DNA of 64,000 nucleotides from Candidatus Latescibacterota bacterium (GTDB taxonomy: Bacteria > Latescibacterota > UBA2968 > GCA-2709665), in NCBI GenBank assembly GCA_963662665.2, contig CAXXJS010000040.1, positions 288,001 to 352,000 on the forward strand, written 5' to 3'. Shown piece by piece: positions 2 to 8,522 of this stretch. Every line of letters begins with the position of its first letter. The first letter of the stretch is position 1. The position numbers and the translations under genes are program-made. The notes beneath the pieces are model-generated. The model made no database searches. It worked only from the letters and a program-made list of their open reading frames with translations, and was not told where the DNA came from.

Positions 2-325
2 GAGGAGACCTTTCACGAGCTTGGTTTGCCTGCGCCAAGCCACGACAAGTTGCCCGATTTAGTTTTATTTGAAAAAATAAGGAAACGGCTGTTTCTGATT
101 GAGGCCGTCACTTCTCACGGCCCGGTTTCTCCAAAACGCCACTTCGAACTGGAGGAGACGTTCAAAGGCTGCATTGCGAAGCGAATATACGTCAGTGCGT
201 TTCCTGATTTCAACATCTTTAAAAATTTCATCACCGAAATCGCCTGGGAAACGGAAGTCTGGTTATCCGAAATACCTGACCATCTGATTCACTTCAACGG
301 AGACCGATATCTGGCACCCATTTGA
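2..325 (+). CDS. BsuBI/PstI-family type II restriction endonuclease, C-terminal part (5' end outside window)
   Basis: Frame is open from base 2. Motifs HDKLPDLVL...LIEAVTSHGP and EIAWETEVW...PDHLIHFNGDRYL are typical of the BsuBI/PstI C-terminal domain. Confidence 0.85.
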   Translation, partial: EETFHELGLPAPSHDKLPDLVLFEKIRKRLFLIEAVTSHGPVSPKRHFELEETFKGCIAKRIYVSAFPDFNIFKNFITEIAWETEVWLSEIPDHLIHFNGDRYLAPI

Positions 326-626: not shown

Positions 627-1329
627 TCAGGCATTCACCTCTCGACACTGAACCAGTACCTGGAACAGAACGATGGGACGGATGTACTCGACGTCATCCC
701 GAGCCCTTTCTGACAACGCGGCGCGGGCGGCTACGGCCCCGTTTTCCAACATCTCCAGGCCCGTTGAGGTCCGTCGCACCCCAGAGAAATGCGGTTCCAT
801 TTGCTCGTTGTGCGCGTAGACCTTGCGTCCCTCGGTGCTCTTCACCCTCAGCGTCTGGATGGTGCCAATTACAATGCAGCACTGATAGCGGATATCGTGC
901 GGTCGGATGTGCGTGAAATCCGCAATGTCAAATGTCCGCACCCTACCTTCAAAGGCCTCGTCCAACACCTGTCGATAAGCATGGCTGGGGCTTTTCAGCG
1001 CGTCGACGGTCTGCCTACGAATGGTATTCGTCGGTACCAGCCAAACACCAGTGGATAGTCCTTCTCAACCCACGCATTGCGCACAACGGATACGGCATGA
1101 GCGGCAAGGATGGTTTTGCCACCGCCTGTGGGAAGGCACAGGCAGACGTAGGGAACGTCCGGCAATTCTATTAACGGCACATCAGCTCCGGCGTAGCCCC
1201 CAGCCGCCCGGCCTGTTCCGGTTCTCTTGTAATCGCCTCGTAGGCGTTCTTGGGTCCGGCTACTCGCGTTTCATCAAAAAATCGGCGCAGAACGGAGAGC
1301 GTGTCGGCTTGATATCGTTTCAGCGGCAT
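627..1329 (-). pseudogene. Type III restriction Res subunit (helicase), fragmented and truncated
   Basis: ATG at 1329 gives MPLKRYQADTLSVLRRFF. After a frameshift (~1195) comes VPYVCLCLPTGGGKT (Walker A), after another (~1045) LVPTNTIRRQT...GRKVYAHNEQMEPHF. This joins directly to YIRPIVLFQ with no DEAH motif; similarity ends near 660. Confidence 0.85.
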
Positions 1330-1351
1330 GGATCGGGTCCGTTAACTCCCT

Positions 1352-1885
1352 TTATGACAAGGACGAGTCTGGCAGCGTGGCGTCTTCTTCAAGGCCGAGG
1401 TCGTACAGCAGAAACCTTGCTTTGTCGATCCGTCCACCCGTCGCTTTGAGAGGCTTGCGCATTTTCAACTCTTCGATGGCCCGCTCAGCGTATCCCTCTT
1501 TCATCAGATAGACAATGGCAGCCGCGAGCTCCAAAACGGTATCCGATGCCTCCGCCATCTTCCGTAATCGTTCACGGGCATCGGTAGCCGAAAGCTCACC
1601 CAGGTTGTCCGGATCGTCATCAGACTCTTTCTGTTTGAAACTCAGATACGAGACATCGTACCGGCCGAGCTTTTCCTCGATTTCAATCCGACCTTCGGCC
1701 TGTGCGTCCTCCCATCCCTCGGCAAGCTCGAAGGAATAAGGACCGCTATAGTGATACGCAAACGAGAGCTCAAATTTCGCCCCGCAACGATCCAGAAGGT
1801 AGGCTTCTCTCTGCAGCCGTGTCTGGCCGTTCAGTTCCCGTCCATTCAGTTTTACCAAATTGACCACGACGTCTCTGGCATTCAT
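1352..1885 (-). CDS. YwgA-like protein (SocA/Panacea-related antitoxin-like fold)
   Basis: GQTRLQREAYLL...FAYHYSGPYSFEL and LELAAAIVYL match the G-R-x-R-L-Q-K...YGPYS...LEL pattern. ATGA overlap with the upstream HD gene. Confidence 0.7.
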   Translation of the reverse strand: MNARDVVVNLVKLNGRELNGQTRLQREAYLLDRCGAKFELSFAYHYSGPYSFELAEGWEDAQAEGRIEIEEKLGRYDVSYLSFKQKESDDDPDNLGELSATDARERLRKMAEASDTVLELAAAIVYLMKEGYAERAIEELKMRKPLKATGGRIDKARFLLYDLGLEEDATLPDSSLS

Positions 1886-3234
1886 GGATTGACCTCCTTC
1901 AAAACTTGACTGATTTCCTCTATCTGGCTTTGTTCCGGTGCGTAAACCCGCTGAATACGCTCCGCGTCACGAAGCGCAGGGACGATTGAGGACACATTGG
2001 CAATGTCCTTCGGTTCTTGATCCTCGGCGCGTGTTTTCACCAAAACTTTATTTAGTGCCGACGAATCGTCAAAATCGTACCATCTGTAGAACACGACCTC
2101 CGCGTCGTCTAATAGAAGGCTGTCATATTCCTTGTAATCGGCTCTCAATTTACGCCGGGAGCGAGTGTATAGATTGCCCTGTGGCTTGTCCCGAATGCCT
2201 ATATCGAAACACTTGTAAAGCCGCCGGTCACGCAGACGGCTTGCCAACTCAGCAATGTTAGTTTGGGATGAAGAAGCAAGAGCCGCCACGGTGGCCCAAA
2301 CTGAGGCATCGTCGAGCTTGAGATACGAACTCAACGAAGACGATTCGGACATAAAGAAATTTAACACTGGATCCTGTTGTACCAATTTATCCTCTCGTAG
2401 ATCCTTCGTGCAGATCCTCAGCAGAGCCTCGAACATTTTCTCAGCGCACCTCGTAGTCTTGTGCATATAGACCGCTTTGTAGAGGCGGAAACGGGCTTCC
2501 AGGTACTCCTCCGCGACCTGCACACCCTTGAGATTGAGATACAGACACTGCACTTCGACCGGTCCATCCATATCAATAGTAACCGGACCGGCCTCAAGGC
2601 AATCAAGCAACCAGCTACAATCGAGATGCGCGAACTCGACTCCAGTCATCAGGCGGTCCCGCTGCAGGTAGTCGAGCCGGTCGGCGTCGAACTGACTGGA
2701 AACAATGGTGGCGTAGATGTCCTTCGGCTCTTCCTCCTTTATAAGCGCGCTGATGTCCTTCGGCAGCCTCGTGTCCACCTCTTGCAATATGCTCTTGACC
2801 TCCGTATCGCCCTGGAGGATCTCCGCACTCCAATCCTCATGGCGTTTGCCCCCGCCGGTCGCCAGAGCCGCGTGTTCGAAGACATGGCTCAATGGACCAT
2901 GCCCGATATCGTGCAGTAGTGCGGCCAACAGCGCCACCCTTGTTCTATCCTCGTCAAACTCCTGGTTCTTTAGACGGCGTCTGATTACGTCAACGATTCG
3001 ACGCGCAATGTGATAGACGCCGACAGCGTGTGCAAAACGGCTATGTGTCGCGCCGGGATATACCAGGTCGGAGAAACCCAAATGACGGATTCGGCGTAGG
3101 CGTTGGAACTCGGGTGTATTGAGCAAACGCCACGCGATCTGGTCCGTCTCATTTTGGGCTTTGTCGTTTCCGTCCCCGAACACAATCAGCCCATGGACCG
3201 GGTCGCGGATGCGCCATGTATTTCTATCGTTCAT
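1882..3234 (-). CDS. HD-domain phosphohydrolase, YwfO/SAMHD1-like (putative dNTP triphosphohydrolase)
   Basis: IRDPVHG, FQRLRRIRHLG, YPGATHSRFAH, ALLHDIGHGPLSH, DADRLDYLQRD, VYMHKT. GGAGG Shine-Dalgarno (SD) before the ATG. Confidence 0.9.
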   Translation of the reverse strand: MNDRNTWRIRDPVHGLIVFGDGNDKAQNETDQIAWRLLNTPEFQRLRRIRHLGFSDLVYPGATHSRFAHAVGVYHIARRIVDVIRRRLKNQEFDEDRTRVALLAALLHDIGHGPLSHVFEHAALATGGGKRHEDWSAEILQGDTEVKSILQEVDTRLPKDISALIKEEEPKDIYATIVSSQFDADRLDYLQRDRLMTGVEFAHLDCSWLLDCLEAGPVTIDMDGPVEVQCLYLNLKGVQVAEEYLEARFRLYKAVYMHKTTRCAEKMFEALLRICTKDLREDKLVQQDPVLNFFMSESSSLSSYLKLDDASVWATVAALASSSQTNIAELASRLRDRRLYKCFDIGIRDKPQGNLYTRSRRKLRADYKEYDSLLLDDAEVVFYRWYDFDDSSALNKVLVKTRAEDQEPKDIANVSSIVPALRDAERIQRVYAPEQSQIEEISQVLKEVNP

Positions 3235-3313
3235 GCAGCCTCCGCTTGAACGCTCGCATATTTTCGTCGGTGTGACGACGATTATGAACCCCGCCCAAGC
3301 GCGAGATCCCCAT

Positions 3314-4375
3314 TTAATTCCTGGTCTTCACGTCGTAGGTTGTCTGCTTGAAGACGATGCCCTCACGGTCGAGTGTTGACGGCGTCAAGCGCGACTGCTC
3401 GCCATTTACCGTCAGCGTACCATCGAAACCCGCATCCTTTCGCGCAATCTCTCTACGAATAATCGGCAGAGTCTTTCGGGTCAAGACATTGCCGTGGCCC
3501 GGTTGCGCGTCGCCGACGATGCCGTTTGTACAGCAGGGCAAAGGCGCGACCATCGTGCAGACCGAGGAATGGAGAGTCTCTGTTCCCGTCCCACGCACGC
3601 CCGGTCTCGCTGAAATAGACGTGGGCGGCCAGCACGGAAAATCGGATATTCGAGCAAATATGCCCTTCCTCGTCGAACACGGGCGGACCGAGGCGATAGA
3701 ACCGAAACCCGCCGCCCTGCTCGCCGTCGATAACTTTCCGCAACCGCGGGACACAATGTGTCATAGCGTGCTTACCCAAAAACGATGGCAGCGGTTACAC
3801 AGTCACAAACTCATTGAACTCGTCCTCCAGGGCGTTGAATTTCAGGACGGAGACATCAAAGCCGCCGCTTAGTCCATCAGGATGCGCTCGCTACCATCCA
3901 CAACATTTGACAATATACGCGGTTCGGATTATTCCGGGAGATGTCGATCATTTTTCGGGTCTCTTGACCTACGCCATCATAAGCCGGCGGGACCGGCTGA
4001 ACCACCCTGTCTGCATTGTCTAGCACGAATTCGTTAAGGTGAATTACTATAGTACCCGTCGGCGCGAGCAAGTCACGTAACAACTCAAGGCGGGCGTACA
4101 TCATACCAAGCCAAATTGAGTGTTCGACATTGTCATCATAATGCTGAAACGCCTGACCCGTGTTAAATGGCGGGTCTATGTAAATACATTTCACTTGACC
4201 TGCATTGAACGGAAGCAGCGCCTTCAGTGCTTCCAGATTGTCCCCCTGGATGAACATGTTACCGTCGTCCAATTCGCAGGTGGAAAGGTCGGGGGCTTCT
4301 TCCAACAGCCGAAAGGGTACCCGCGCGGCAGCCTGGATGTCGGCCTCTCGTGTCAACCAGTTCAAGGGTTGGCAT
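3314..4375 (-). pseudogene. Type III R-M Mod subunit (N6-adenine methyltransferase), fragmented
   Basis: N-terminal IQGDNLEALKALLP...VKCIYIDPPFNTG (motif IV). C-terminal THCVPRLRKVIDGEQGGGFRFYRLG...GIVFKQTTYDVK. Frameshifts near 4366 and 3525, internal deletions, no FxGxG motif, IS remnant inside. Confidence 0.85.
3776..3918 (+). mobile_element. IS256-family remnant (transposase C-terminus and right end)
   Basis: QKRWQRLHSHKLIELVLQGVEFQDGDIKAAA* (stop at 3872) resembles IS256 transposase C-termini. It is followed by CACAACATTTGACAATAT, resembling an IS256-type terminal repeat. Confidence 0.65.
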
Positions 4376-5628
4376 CAGCTATCGTCCTCCTGAATTCCCG
4401 ACATCGCTTCGTCGTATTCCGCAATCCATTCTTCGGCTTCTTCCTCAGTGTAGGCCCCGGTAAAGATATGGCTGAATCCCGTCGGCAGTTCATTGCTTTC
4501 CGGCGCGATTATATGCGATTCCAGTTTCCTTCGTAACTTTTTTGCTTTTTCGTTAGACAAGCCTTCGACCAGGGAGTCCACCTCTTCTCGACTCAGTCCC
4601 CCTGCGAATACTATTCCCGACAGATCGGTTTCTTTGTCAATCTGCTGACGGATGCGATCAGCAAATGCGTCAGGGGCTATCGCACTATTGACACCTTCCA
4701 AATGGGCATGTGAGAGATCGGCCCCTTGTAATTTCACACCGCCAAGCCAGGCACCTTGCAAACATGTATGATAAAGCCTGGCGCCCTGCATCTGCGCGCT
4801 GAAAAGCTCGGCCCCATGTAGACACGCCCGGAAAAGCTGAGCCCCCTGCATGTGCGCCTCAATAAAATCAGCCGCCTGCAGGTGTGCCACTTCAAGATTA
4901 GCCCCTTGCAGACGGGCCTTACAAAAATTGGCTTTTTGCAGGTGTGCCTTATAGAAAATGGTGCCTTGCAGATACGCATTGGCCAAGACAGCCTTTTCCA
5001 AATGCGCTCCCCTGATATCTGCACCGTTCAGCCAACTTCCCTGCAAGTTGACGTGGAGACGTTTGAAAACTTCGTGCCGTTGTACGAACAACAACGTCAA
5101 CAGGCTTTGTACTTCTTCCGAGGGGTTCGAACTTTGCTTTTCGCGATACGCATCTTCGCCTGTCGTCTGCCGAATATGTGCGCAAAGAATGTCCAGCACG
5201 GTCTGTCGCAACGCCTCGGTATCTTCCGCCAAATGAAACAGTTCGTATGCTCCTCCAAGGCGAACAGAGTCAGACTCATGTCCGAGGTGTTCGATGGCGT
5301 TCTTCATTCGCTCCTGACGCTGTCCCTCCTCCGTCTTAAGCACGGCGCTGGCTTGGGTATTGGCGGTTTCCTCCATCGCTTTAGCCCGTTTGTAGGACAT
5401 CAGTGCTTGCAATGCGACAAGAACGCCTCCCATACCAATTCCCACGAACTTTAGTGCCTCGTGTTTTGTTTCCTCCCCTTCGGCTAATCCCAGCAACTCG
5501 AAAATCCACTGGGGCTCCCTGGACCACATTGCGATGGCGAATACCGAGATCATCACGACCAAAAGTGCAACTAATCCGGTCTGGAATATCGAAAAGAGGT
5601 TCCGCCTAATCGTATAGTGAAACTTCAT
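4375..5628 (-). CDS. Membrane-anchored pentapeptide-repeat protein (paralogue 3)
   Basis: Two N-terminal hydrophobic helices, ERMKNAIEHLG...VRLGGAYELFHLA, then A(H/Y/R)L(Q/E)G repeats and C-terminal GAYTEEEAEEWIAEY. Confidence 0.9.
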   Translation of the reverse strand: MKFHYTIRRNLFSIFQTGLVALLVVMISVFAIAMWSREPQWIFELLGLAEGEETKHEALKFVGIGMGGVLVALQALMSYKRAKAMEETANTQASAVLKTEEGQRQERMKNAIEHLGHESDSVRLGGAYELFHLAEDTEALRQTVLDILCAHIRQTTGEDAYREKQSSNPSEEVQSLLTLLFVQRHEVFKRLHVNLQGSWLNGADIRGAHLEKAVLANAYLQGTIFYKAHLQKANFCKARLQGANLEVAHLQAADFIEAHMQGAQLFRACLHGAELFSAQMQGARLYHTCLQGAWLGGVKLQGADLSHAHLEGVNSAIAPDAFADRIRQQIDKETDLSGIVFAGGLSREEVDSLVEGLSNEKAKKLRRKLESHIIAPESNELPTGFSHIFTGAYTEEEAEEWIAEYDEAMSGIQEDDS

Positions 5629-5721: not shown

Positions 5722-7076
5722 TCAGCCTTCGTTCTCCGACGCCTCTCCCGTCGCTTCTTCATATTCGTCGATCCATTTCTCAGCTTCTTCTTCGGCATAG
5801 GATCCTATCATGGCGCCGCTATCTTTCGGCAAATCATTGTTCGCCGGCCTGCCAACATGACTGATCATTTTCTTTCGTAACTCAACTTCCGCCTGTTGTA
5901 GCTCATCTTCCTTGTAGAGCAAACCGCCTGCTTCTTCTCTCGGAAAGTTACTCAAAAAGGAGTCGACATGCTTTTGGCACACACCTCCTTCGAAAATCAC
6001 AGAAGACAAATCACTTTTTCGTTCGATCGCGTGCCTTATCTGTTGTGAGTACGATCTATCTAAATCAACCTCGCGTTGGATCCCGTGCAGCTGTGCATGC
6101 TTAAGTACGGCTCCTTGTAGCTGCACGTCCATAAGAACGGTTCCCTGCAATTGTGCCTTAGCGAGATTAACCCCTTGCATCTGTGCATACAAGAAAACTG
6201 CCCCGCGCAGCTGTGACTGGCCAAGATTAGCTCCTTGTAACCGAACTTCGTAGGTATGGACACCATTCAATTCTGCTTTTTCCAAATAAGCTCCGCGCAT
6301 CTGCGTACAATAGAGCACAACACCATTTAGTTTCGCACTAGATAAATTAGCTCCCTCAAGATGCGCCTCGTACATGTGGGCTTGAGTTAAGTTCGCATAT
6401 GCTAAACCGGCTCCGTTCAGCCAGCTTCCATTAAGGTTGATATGGAGTCCCTCGAATAATTCTGTCTCGCTTCCGAATAACAAATCCAATATACCTTGTA
6501 CTTCCGGTGAGGGCTTAGACGTGTGCTTTTCCCTATATCCGATTTCGCCAGTCTTATGGCGAATGTGAGAGCAAAGAATATCCAATACTGTCTGTTGTAA
6601 ATGTATGGCTTCATCCGCTGAAGTAGTGTCTCTCGCCAGATGAAATAGCTCGTACGCCCCTCCCAGTCGCACGGATTCGGAATCATGCCCGGAGATGTTC
6701 AATTGCGTTTTTCATGCGCTCCTGACGCTGTCCTTTTTCCACGTGTGCGACAGTATCCTCCACGGCTTGTGCTCGTCTTTGGGTAGCCAGAGCCTGAAGG
6801 GCAACTAGAATTCCACCCATAGCAATTCCAACGAATTTCAGGATTTCCGCCTTTCCGGACAGGCTCCTAGCAAGAAAGTCACGTGCTCCTCGATATTTAC
6901 GGAAAACACTACACCCACAAATACCGTGAATCCTCCAACAAGCAGGAATATGAGGAGGAGTTGAAACAATAGGAAGAGGTAGTGTGTAAACTTAGCATAA
7001 AAACCCATCTCGAATTCCCTCCAATTGTTGTCAGGGTCTTTTGCCAAAAACGATGGCTTTCCGATTTCTTAACCAT
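5722..7076 (-). pseudogene. Membrane-anchored pentapeptide-repeat protein (paralogue 2), frameshifted in its 5' part
   Basis: ATG at 7076 overlaps the upstream TGA. TM fragment 6838-7047, then ILKFVGIAMGGILVALQAL...GQRQERMKNAIEHL in a second frame, then a frameshift near 6693 into 5722-6702 (GHDSESVRLGG, repeats, SYAEEEAEKWIDEY). Confidence 0.8.
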
Positions 7077-8338
7077 CAGCTCTCATCCTCCCCCGCCTCT
7101 CCCGTCGCTTCCTTGTATTCCGCAATCCACTTCTCGGCTTCTTCTTCGGTGTAGGCGCCGATAACCGCGCCGCTTTGTTCAGGAAGTTCGTAGGTCCTGC
7201 CCTTGCCGACGTGGGGCGTCAGCTTTTCCCTTAACGCGTTTGCCGTTTCGTGGTACATCCCATCCAGAACCGATTCCACCTCCTCCAACGTCAATCCGCC
7301 GCCGAAGACGGCCCCGCTCAGGTCGGTCTCCTCACCGATTGACTGCGTCACCCGCTGAGCAAAGGAATCGGGGTAATCAACGTGACTCCTCACGCCCTGA
7401 AGCTGCGCGTCATTGAGGTCCGCCCCCTGCAGATTCGCTCCCACGATAAAGGCGCCCTGCAGATGCGTCCGGGAAAGCGAGGCGCCACGCAACATCGACC
7501 GCGCAAGGTCGGCCCCCTGCAGATTCGCCCTGGAAAGGCCCGCGGCGTCGAGGCGCGCGCCGACCAGGTCCGCTCCCTGAAGCCTCGCCCAGGAGAGACC
7601 GGCCACCTGCAGATGCGCCCATGACAGGTCCGCGCCCTGGAGCTGCGCGCCCACAAGGTCCGCGCCCTGAAGCCTCGCCTCCGCAAGATTGGCTCCGCAA
7701 AGGTACGCGGTGCATAGCGTCGCACCGTTCAACCAGCTTCCCTGCAGGTCGATGCGAAGGCCTTTCCAGATTCCGTCGGGCGAGGTGAACAGCAGGTTCA
7801 GCAGGCCCTGGACCTCCTCCGATGGTGTCGACATGTACCTTCTACGATACGTGTCCTGGCCCGTGGTGCGTCGGATGTGCGCGCAAAGAATGTCCAGCGC
7901 CGGCTGGCGCAATATTTCGGTATCCTGCGCGAGGTGGAAAAGTTCGTAGGCGCCGCCCTGGCGCACCGCCGCCGAGTCGTGGCCAAGGTGTTCCACTCCG
8001 TTATGGAGGCGTTCATGCCGCCGCCCCACTTCGGCGTCTCGGCTGGCCCGCGCCTGCTCCATTGCTGCCCTGGCCTGCTCGCCCGCAGCGTCGGCCTGCG
8101 CTCTCGCGACGCCCTCCAGTTCTCGAGCGCGTTTATGGGATATCAGGGCGTTCAGGGCTACCACGATACCTGCCGAGCCGATCCCCAGGAATTTGAGTGC
8201 TTCGGAATTCCGGTATAGACCCAGAAGCGCGGATAAATAAATCCCGAAGGACGGGAATAACAGGAGGTACAACAGCGCCGCCAACGCAATGACGAGCAGG
8301 GCAACCAGAACCGTCTGCAAGATCAGAAAGTGATTCAT
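7076..8338 (-). CDS. Membrane-anchored pentapeptide-repeat protein (paralogue 1)
   Basis: ATG at 8338 with GGAGG SD. TM helices, GVEHLGHDSAAVRQGGAYELFHLA, ARLQG/ADLxG repeats, GAYTEEEAEKWIAEY. Confidence 0.9.
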   Translation of the reverse strand: MNHFLILQTVLVALLVIALAALLYLLLFPSFGIYLSALLGLYRNSEALKFLGIGSAGIVVALNALISHKRARELEGVARAQADAAGEQARAAMEQARASRDAEVGRRHERLHNGVEHLGHDSAAVRQGGAYELFHLAQDTEILRQPALDILCAHIRRTTGQDTYRRRYMSTPSEEVQGLLNLLFTSPDGIWKGLRIDLQGSWLNGATLCTAYLCGANLAEARLQGADLVGAQLQGADLSWAHLQVAGLSWARLQGADLVGARLDAAGLSRANLQGADLARSMLRGASLSRTHLQGAFIVGANLQGADLNDAQLQGVRSHVDYPDSFAQRVTQSIGEETDLSGAVFGGGLTLEEVESVLDGMYHETANALREKLTPHVGKGRTYELPEQSGAVIGAYTEEEAEKWIAEYKEATGEAGEDES

Positions 8339-8522
8339 CGGACCCTCCGGATATGGTGTCAACGTTTACAATCAGGAATCAATGGTCTGCCGGCGCCTGC
8401 AATATACGCATTGCCGCCACCGCACGTCAGATGTTACGTGCAACCTGAAATATCCCGCCACACCCCTGCTTTGGCAAACACATTCGTGCCGCCGGGCTTT
8501 CCCGATTCGCAACCTAACGATT

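Follow-up and report, generated by a model that had tools for sequence, protein, structure and literature searches.

Depletion of deoxynucleoside triphosphates (dNTPs) is an antiviral strategy of animals, which use SAMHD1 for this purpose, and of bacteria, which use dGTPases and the Clover system. In darT-darG loci, the toxin gene comes first and the gene for DarG second. Here, we describe a two-gene cassette located at positions 1352 to 3234 of a 64,000-nucleotide stretch from Candidatus Latescibacterota bacterium (contig CAXXJS010000040.1, positions 288,001 to 352,000 of the forward strand). The whole stretch is referred to as the window, and its genome is G000 in the numbering used below. 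The first gene of the cassette encodes an HD-domain protein of the EF1143/SAMHD1 type, the second a small protein resembling the C-terminal domain of DarG (hereafter the partner), and both genes lie between the remains of the mod and res genes of a type III restriction-modification (R-M) operon. Our tentative reading is that the pair is a possible toxin–antitoxin-like, dNTP-depleting module that is often carried in R-M operons.

Several described systems share features with this pair. In Clover, the dNTP-depleting dGTPase CloA shows toxicity when it lacks CloB, the product of the adjacent gene, which holds it back by way of the nucleotide p3diT, made by a nucleotidyltransferase (PMC12265719). 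PanA binds, and so neutralises, many toxins that are unrelated to one another (PMC8832971), and DUF4065/Panacea proteins are stated to be homologous to the DarG C-terminal domain (PMC13621843, published in 2026). Effector genes that are not R-M genes themselves but are nested among the subunit genes of type I R-M loci are represented by PrrC, an anticodon nuclease found with EcoPrrI, and by the Ronin protein RonA, a membrane protein of 61 amino acids found with HsdMS; dependence on R-M has been shown for these systems (10.1101/2023.04.06.535777).

The cassette in the window consists of the following features, all on the minus strand:

1882 to 3234, minus strand: HD gene, an uninterrupted open reading frame (ORF) of 450 amino acids, whose product resembles dNTP triphosphohydrolases of the EF1143/SAMHD1 type
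1352 to 1885, minus strand: partner gene, an ORF of 177 amino acids, whose product is a stand-alone protein similar to the DarG C-terminal domain, predicted to form a winged helix and four helices
1882 to 1896, minus strand: ATGA stop/start overlap of the two genes with a GGAGG ribosome-binding site, which lies within the 3' end of the HD gene

The junction between the two genes reads ...CCATGAATG..., where the HD gene, ending in the stop codon TGA, shares 4 nucleotides with the partner gene, beginning with ATG, and GGAGG sits 8 nucleotides 5' of the partner start, inside the end of the HD gene. This 4-nucleotide overlap together with the Shine–Dalgarno sequence is translational coupling of the HD gene and the partner gene. 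An ATGA or GTGA overlap was retained in 23 of the 27 related loci with an uninterrupted HD gene. The ORFs and the junction confirm the original prediction, made from the letters of the window alone, that two overlapping full-length genes for proteins of 450 and 177 amino acids lie between mod and res. The order mod-HD-partner-res was found again in four congeners and in two other phyla, so the arrangement in the window is more than chance.

Analysis of the HD protein revealed matches to the Pfam families HD (2.6e-12) and HD_assoc_2 (2.2e-13). Residues 31-435 align with the characterised dNTPase EF1143 of Enterococcus faecalis (2o6i, E-value = 1.9e-46; also 3irh and 4lrl), and many SAMHD1 entries in the PDB match the N-terminal core at about 1e-17. 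The H..HD..D metal-ligand motifs of this fold family are present in the window protein and invariant among the HD homologues (29/29), in which H64, H69, H108, D109, H112, H117, D183, D185 and D188 were all invariant or nearly so. The two family traits of EF1143/SAMHD1-type enzymes, an HD domain with its metal ligands and full-length homology to a characterised dNTPase, were both found, and the predicted SAMHD1-like character of the protein is borne out by them. The reaction that the enzyme most likely carries out is hydrolysis of dNTPs, with deoxynucleosides and triphosphate as the products. An identity as a Dgt-type anti-phage dGTPase was also considered and rejected, as the NCBIfam models NF041026 and NF003701 gave only 19.8-26.1 bits against cut-offs of 152-439; the dGTPase models align only with HD residues of about 62-122 (PADLOC dGTPase, 1e-5). 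The protein differs in the same way from CloA, which is of the Dgt type.

Two other HD paralogues without a partner were found in every one of 41 close relatives. The window protein has about 39% identity or less to these housekeeping-type paralogues of the same genomes, carries HD_assoc_2 and, unlike them, belongs to a lineage that is always paired with the partner. In a quick IQ-TREE phylogeny of 30 pair-linked HD proteins and 2 paralogues, a branch of 4.26 separates the pair-linked clade from the paralogues, and the clade mixes phyla.

For the partner, the PADLOC DarG model gave a match with an E-value of 1.8e-7, restricted to model positions 165-303 of 329, and the NCBIfam DarG model gave an E-value of 1.5e-4 with 21.2 bits, far under its cut-off of 250. 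Sequence searches of the PDB with the partner, both as a single sequence and as a profile, returned nothing significant. A confident AlphaFold2 model built with 23 homologues (pLDDT 89.7, pTM 0.86) contains a winged helix and, after it, four helices. The top PDB match of this model by Foldseek was DarG (7yk3 chain B, from the Mycobacterium tuberculosis DarTG complex; TM 0.64/0.61, probability 1.00, E-value = 6e-3). A second structural aligner likewise placed DarG first (7yk3 chain D, Z 11.9, root-mean-square deviation 3.4, 152 of 177 residues aligned), with the next entries at Z 8.0 or below and covering the winged helix only. By sequence and by predicted fold, the partner is thus a stand-alone relative of the C-terminal, DarT-binding domain of DarG. 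It differs from DarG in that it carries no N-terminal macrodomain, the ADP-ribosyl glycohydrolase part of DarG (177 amino acids in total for the partner), and in that the upstream gene encodes an HD hydrolase in 39/39 loci, without an adjacent DarT; the gene order, effector first and DarG-like protein second, is that of darT-darG. No nucleotidyltransferase domain was found in the partner by Pfam and fold searches, so the adjacent gene is no counterpart of a CloB nucleotidyltransferase, and the pair differs from Clover in joining an EF1143/SAMHD1-type enzyme to a protein without an enzymatic domain.

No Pfam family matched the window partner, and no relevant one matched 23 members of its family or 46 wider relatives. 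PF13274 (DUF4065/SocA_Panacea) in particular matched 0/23 members at E-values up to 1 and 0/46 wider relatives at E-values up to 0.01. With Panacea proteins the partner shares its form as a small stand-alone domain, and PF13274 is carried by 13% of the proteins in one cluster of ESM-Atlas look-alikes (rank 18, score 0.91); the partner differs from Panacea proteins in the lack of a PF13274 match and in its faithfulness to one enzyme family, whereas Panacea is promiscuous. Because PF13274 is unmatched in the family, the partner is best labelled as similar to the DarG C-terminal domain and Panacea-related at most. The resemblance to the DarG C-terminus that had been predicted therefore held in the PADLOC model and in the 7yk3 fold, whereas the predicted DUF4065/Panacea membership did not. 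The partner family is large, with 1326 cluster representatives at E-values up to 1e-3, 387 at 1e-10 and 50 at 1e-30; its members are nearly all stand-alone proteins of 160-185 amino acids, and no Pfam match was detected among the scanned representatives. One homologue (P0028) is named 'uncharacterized protein YwgA' by JGI. The HD gene ywfO and ywgA are neighbours in Bacillus subtilis. Another protein, P0162 (378 amino acids), combines an N-terminal part bearing HD and HD_assoc_2 with partner positions 90-170, the C-terminal half; it probably arose when a deletion fused the two genes of an adjacent pair.

The distribution of the two genes is patchy and strictly linked. Of 41 close relatives, 5 carry the HD orthologue, and these very 5 carry the partner. 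Across 168 genomes of the phylum, an HD orthologue (E-value up to 1e-80) was found in 9 and the partner in 11, and every genome with the HD orthologue also holds the partner (9/9). Within those nine, G101 and G102 contain a truncated HD and a whole partner; two further genomes, G103 and G141, contain partner fragments only. Similarly, a partner-family match was detected in 13 of 401 sampled genomes of Alphaproteobacteria and lies adjacent to an HD homologue in 12 of these 13, the pair in the thirteenth (G366) being split over contig ends. A scan of one genome per species yielded 39 partner-seeded loci from Latescibacterota, Acidobacteriota, Spirochaetota, Rhodothermota, Alphaproteobacteria and Gammaproteobacteria. 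In all 39 an HD sequence is located directly upstream of the partner, and this pairing extends to pairs with only about 41-46% HD identity. The pair is an accessory, strictly linked, horizontally spread two-gene module. The coupled genes and the patchy, mobile distribution of type II toxin–antitoxin systems were accordingly found in the overlap (23/27), the patchiness and the cross-phylum tree; the first gene, with 450 amino acids, exceeds the typical size of a toxin.

Among the 39 partner-seeded loci, the HD gene was uninterrupted in 27, cut by contig ends in 2 (L043 and L050) and broken in 10 (L017, L019, L023, L028, L030, L032, L037, L040, L041 and L052). The forms of breakage vary. L028 and L030 have an internal deletion in the HD gene. 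In L032, the partner alone (L032:8977-9537) is kept between hsdM and hsdS, and HD is almost wholly deleted, with about 85 recognisable residues left at 41% identity. In L037, from a gammaproteobacterium, an insertion of about 1.3 kb with an ORF of 400 amino acids (L037:6787-7989), presumably an insertion sequence (IS), splits HD into residues 1-124 and 118-449. The spirochaete G170, from which L024 was taken, contains two separate partner copies (C1:2144135 and C1:3964808).

The genomic neighbourhoods of 42 loci were analyzed, comprising the window, L012, L014 and the 39 partner-seeded loci. In 7 of them (the window, L012, L014, L015, L016, L017 and L020), the mod and res genes of a type III system flank the pair, and G101 represents an eighth type III case, from coordinates only. 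Another nine have the type I order hsdR-hsdM-HD-partner-hsdS (L025, L029, L032, L038, L039, L042, L049 and L053, together with L047, where hsdM is followed by an additional 3.6 kb); the assignment rests on BLAST clustering, with Pfam applied to L025 and L053 only, and the type I ORFs around the pair are mostly uninterrupted. In total, 16/42 loci lie within R-M operons of two types, nested among the subunit genes as effectors of the PrrC and Ronin kind are. The original interpretation gains support from this frequent embedding in R-M operons and from the accessory occurrence of the pair (5/41, 11/168 and 13/401 genomes).

The type III family without the pair is common in relatives, a Res orthologue being present in 35/168 genomes. 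The junction between mod and res is tight in L063, L066 and L068, and other inserts occupy it elsewhere (about 1.3 kb in L059, L064 and L065; about 0.6 kb in L060-L062). One of these inserts is an ORF of about 320 amino acids on the opposite strand, with no Pfam match. Because relatives without the pair show other inserts or tight junctions, the slot between mod and res is a variable cargo site. On the HD tree, loci with the type III context all fall in one subclade and those with the type I context are spread over the other. Such a pattern requires two independent associations with R-M systems at the least, and need not involve many more. Within R-M operons, the cassette is usually found directly behind the methyltransferase gene, between mod and res or between hsdM and hsdS.

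In the window itself, the two type III genes next to the pair survive as remnants:

636 to 1329, minus strand: type III res remnant, about 230 of 886 residues left in several frames, found by tblastn with the Res protein of G009
3323 to 4365, minus strand: type III mod remnant, N-terminus intact, followed by an internal deletion and frameshifts

The res pieces, detected with the intact Res of G009 (886 amino acids), correspond to its residues 1-44, 51-96, 96-200 and 285-320. The mod N-terminus is the ORF 3877 to 4365 on the minus strand (PADLOC MTase_III, 6e-42), and the pieces found by tblastn with mod pieces of G009 (residues 4-115, 1-41, 51-145 and 143-213) are distributed over several frames between 4365 and 3323. 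Intact mod and res were thus not found in the window, only fragments, and the predicted arrangement of an uninterrupted pair inside a broken operon is confirmed by these frame-scattered pieces. For comparison, res is intact in G009 (L013:6004-8664, 886 amino acids, PADLOC REase_III 1.5e-172) and in G001 (881 amino acids). In the mod gene of G009, an IS that encodes a DDE_Tnp_1_4 transposase has inserted (L013:12209-14281), where an ORF of 690 amino acids fuses the mod N-terminus to the transposase. In G007, mod is almost gone, and genes for a RelE-family toxin and an antitoxin similar to HTH/MqsA proteins stand directly upstream of the pair instead (RelE and HTH-MqsA-like gene coordinates L011:8221-8571 and L015:7047-7352).

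The ratio of nonsynonymous to synonymous substitutions (dN/dS) was calculated by the Nei-Gojobori method against four congeners. In all comparisons with dS above 0.1, it was 0.17-0.25 for the HD gene and 0.23-0.35 for the partner gene; higher values (0.54 and 0.46) appeared only between the near-identical G007 and G011, where dS is 0.03-0.05. Both genes are under purifying selection. A reading of the pair as eroding or pseudogenised was ruled out by these values (0.17-0.35) together with the invariant metal ligands. The early erosion that had been suspected from a few deviating residues was accordingly not seen: RLQRE is common in the HD family, and the other two deviations, at position 51 (H in the window, Q in 26/29 homologues) and position 115 (L in the window, F in 25/29), are minority variants at non-catalytic sites. 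As the type III genes have decayed and the pair has been kept by selection, the pair probably works independently of that R-M system. RNA contigs from a relative with about 95% identity (two libraries of one study) span both genes, and one of them bridges the gene junction; they are a weak hint of transcription, given that DNA carry-over is possible, and the window parts without RNA-contig cover carry no meaning in this respect. A scan of positions 1000-4600 for promoter and terminator consensus sequences gave counts at the level of shuffled sequence.

How the two proteins might act together was considered in the light of DarTG and Clover. In the toxin–antitoxin-like reading, the partner would bind the HD dNTPase and keep the enzyme inactive, a restraint modelled on the DarG C-terminal domain acting on DarT and on the CloB product acting on CloA. 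Once this restraint was lost, for example when the partner was degraded or titrated during phage infection, the freed HD enzyme would empty the dNTP pool, and replication of phage and cell DNA would halt, resulting in abortive or bacteriostatic defence. The dNTPase activity, the partner binding, the inhibition, the trigger and the anti-phage effect are what we infer in this scheme. With the mark set at 0.32, predictions of the complex of HD and partner gave scores of 0.26, 0.33 and 0.14, of which the median is 0.26, and they speak neither for nor against binding. In the pattern of decay, the HD gene is broken in 10/37 assessable loci and the partner is whole in 9/10 of these, and such an asymmetry, in which HD breaks and the partner stays, has the direction expected of toxin and antidote.

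Several observations weigh against this reading. The decay count is biased, since the loci were found with the partner as query; HD-seeded searches, which are free of this bias, detected an intact close orthologue without partner in 0/7 cases in the phylum and 0/3 in Alphaproteobacteria, small numbers that speak in favour of the reading. Three small alphaproteobacterial genomes contain a sister HD (43-45% identity) without partner and with convergent downstream genes, from which it follows that cells can tolerate such an enzyme in the absence of a partner. The N-terminal half of the partner matches winged-helix regulators at Z 7-8, which fits a DNA-binding regulator, and the strict one-to-one pairing across the wider family would likewise suit a housekeeping enzyme with a regulatory subunit of its own. 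Searches of plasmids, phages and IMG/VR viral contigs with the partner returned no match. Furthermore, 26/42 loci lie outside any R-M operon. When 133 ORFs from 25 of these 26 loci (three per side of the pair) were scanned with PADLOC, 20/25 loci had no match in the three nearest ORFs on each side, the others being L022 (C5 methylase), L028, L030 and L031 (PDC-M03A/B) and L048 (hsdS fragments), and Pfam on a sample of the non-R-M loci identified metabolic neighbours and some transposases. The original prediction had proposed that homologous pairs mostly in housekeeping contexts would speak against a defence role; the 26/42 loci outside R-M operons do so, whereas the 16/42 inside operons of two R-M types speak for it.

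In one alternative, the HD enzyme would be a regulated dNTPase for dNTP homeostasis (similar to EF1143 or Dgt), with the partner as its dedicated regulatory subunit or as a winged-helix transcription factor for the operon, and the pair would be hitch-hiking in R-M operons with no functional significance. Such a housekeeping role accords with strict and ancient pairing over a wide family (pairs at about 41-46% HD identity, 1326 partner representatives), with the ordinary neighbours at most loci, with the existence of partner-less sister HDs and with the regulator-like N-terminal half of the partner. However, we regard it as somewhat unlikely. The pair occurs sporadically (5/41, 11/168 and 13/401), two other HD paralogues are already present in every relative, the phylogeny of the pair crosses phyla, and 16/42 loci occupy the same relative position in two types of R-M operon. 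In addition, decay of HD only is hard to explain for a harmless enzyme.

The repeated position in R-M operons might instead reflect a guard function like that of PrrC or Ronin, in which the pair is wired to the methyltransferase complex of its host operon and fires, by dNTP depletion, once phage anti-restriction proteins have disabled that complex; the copy in the window would then be an orphaned remnant. In R-M-embedded loci the pair is always behind a methyltransferase gene (mod in 7, hsdM in 8, and L047 with 3.6 kb between), the surrounding type I genes are mostly uninterrupted, and L032 keeps the partner alone between hsdM and hsdS. Precedents are PrrC with EcoPrrI and RonA with HsdMS (10.1101/2023.04.06.535777). 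Yet the pair is intact and under purifying selection in the window, G007 and G011 despite broken mod and res. In this it differs from PrrC and Ronin, as it outlasts the decay of the R-M genes, and its persistence after this decay argues against obligatory dependence on the R-M complex. Since 26/42 loci have no flanking R-M genes at all, and since two clustered R-M associations are enough to account for the HD tree, and could stem from two captures and later co-transfer, we consider a guard function quite unlikely. The remaining alternative, a selfish addiction cassette or decaying cargo without host benefit, is in line with the small size and patchy occurrence of the pair, the transposases often nearby (L018, L041 and L048; the IS in mod of G009) and the broken HD in 10/37 loci, but it is very unlikely, as decay in the window lineage is excluded by the dN/dS values (0.17-0.35) and by catalytic residues that do not vary, addiction alone leaves the repeated R-M placement unexplained, and the cassette was not found in the plasmid, phage or viral-contig searches.

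A bolder form of the toxin–antitoxin-like reading combines the fold of the partner with the R-M context. The DarG C-terminal domain is reportedly called a mimic of single-stranded DNA in the title of one paper. The partner might be a nucleic-acid-mimicking clamp on a SAMHD1-like dNTPase that serves as a back-up layer for R-M systems, a proposal we hold to be improbable. The cassette would be co-expressed from the slot behind the methyltransferase gene, and phage anti-restriction factors or DNA-binding proteins would capture the mimic, whereby the dNTPase would be freed and phage replication starved. The net charge of the partner was examined as a sign of such mimicry and rejected as not diagnostic: the window protein has an isoelectric point of 4.8 and a net charge of -10, while the family median is -4 and 5/23 members are basic. 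If the proposal were true, the pair would represent a new class of protein-restrained, nucleotide-depleting immunity common to type I and type III R-M operons, and no enzyme of the SAMHD1 family would have had an antitoxin-like partner described before.

The literature searched, which included papers on Panacea, NetFlax, Clover and octameric dGTPases, yielded no dNTPase that is paired with a protein similar to the DarG C-terminal domain or to Panacea, and no such pair in R-M operons; the supplementary tables of the Panacea/NetFlax papers might list such cases. The main texts of two Panacea/NetFlax papers mention no HD or dNTPase toxin. Likewise, no paper on the function of YwgA or YwfO was found, as judged from search entries. 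The kinds of components, namely nucleotide-depleting defence, antitoxin-like restraint and R-M-embedded cargo, are all known, and their combination appears to be new. Under the toxin–antitoxin-like reading, the pair family would add to nucleotide depletion a restraint exerted by a protein, in which DarG's toxin-binding domain is put to use again, here on SAMHD1's closest bacterial counterparts. After PrrC and Ronin, the family would also be a second clear case of effectors that ride in restriction operons, here in the same slot of two R-M types. As no Pfam model exists for the large partner family, an assigned role would annotate many genomes.

Further genes surround the locus in the window:

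2 to 325, plus strand: C-terminus of a BsuBI/PstI-type nuclease (Pfam BsuBI_PstI_RE, 2.1e-36), cut by the window start; context of the pair and not a member of it
4375 to 5628, 5722 to 6820 and 7076 to 8362, minus strand: three tandem paralogous pentapeptide-repeat genes of 417, 326 and 428 amino acids

The Pfam match at positions 2 to 325 verifies the BsuBI/PstI nuclease that had been predicted as a neighbour. Its counterpart in the congener G007 (L011:12085-14934) is a fusion of helix-turn-helix, methylase and nuclease parts with 949 amino acids. In the Rhodothermales loci L028, L030 and L031, the pair is followed by an AAA+ gene similar to MgsA/RarA and then by the two-gene candidate system PDC-M03A/B, whose A protein carries a HipA_C domain. 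Genes similar to the pentapeptide-repeat genes of the window also flank the locus in G009 and G007. The full-length copies start with hydrophobic segments, and the middle copy has seemingly lost its N-terminus by a frameshift (fragment 6683-6820).

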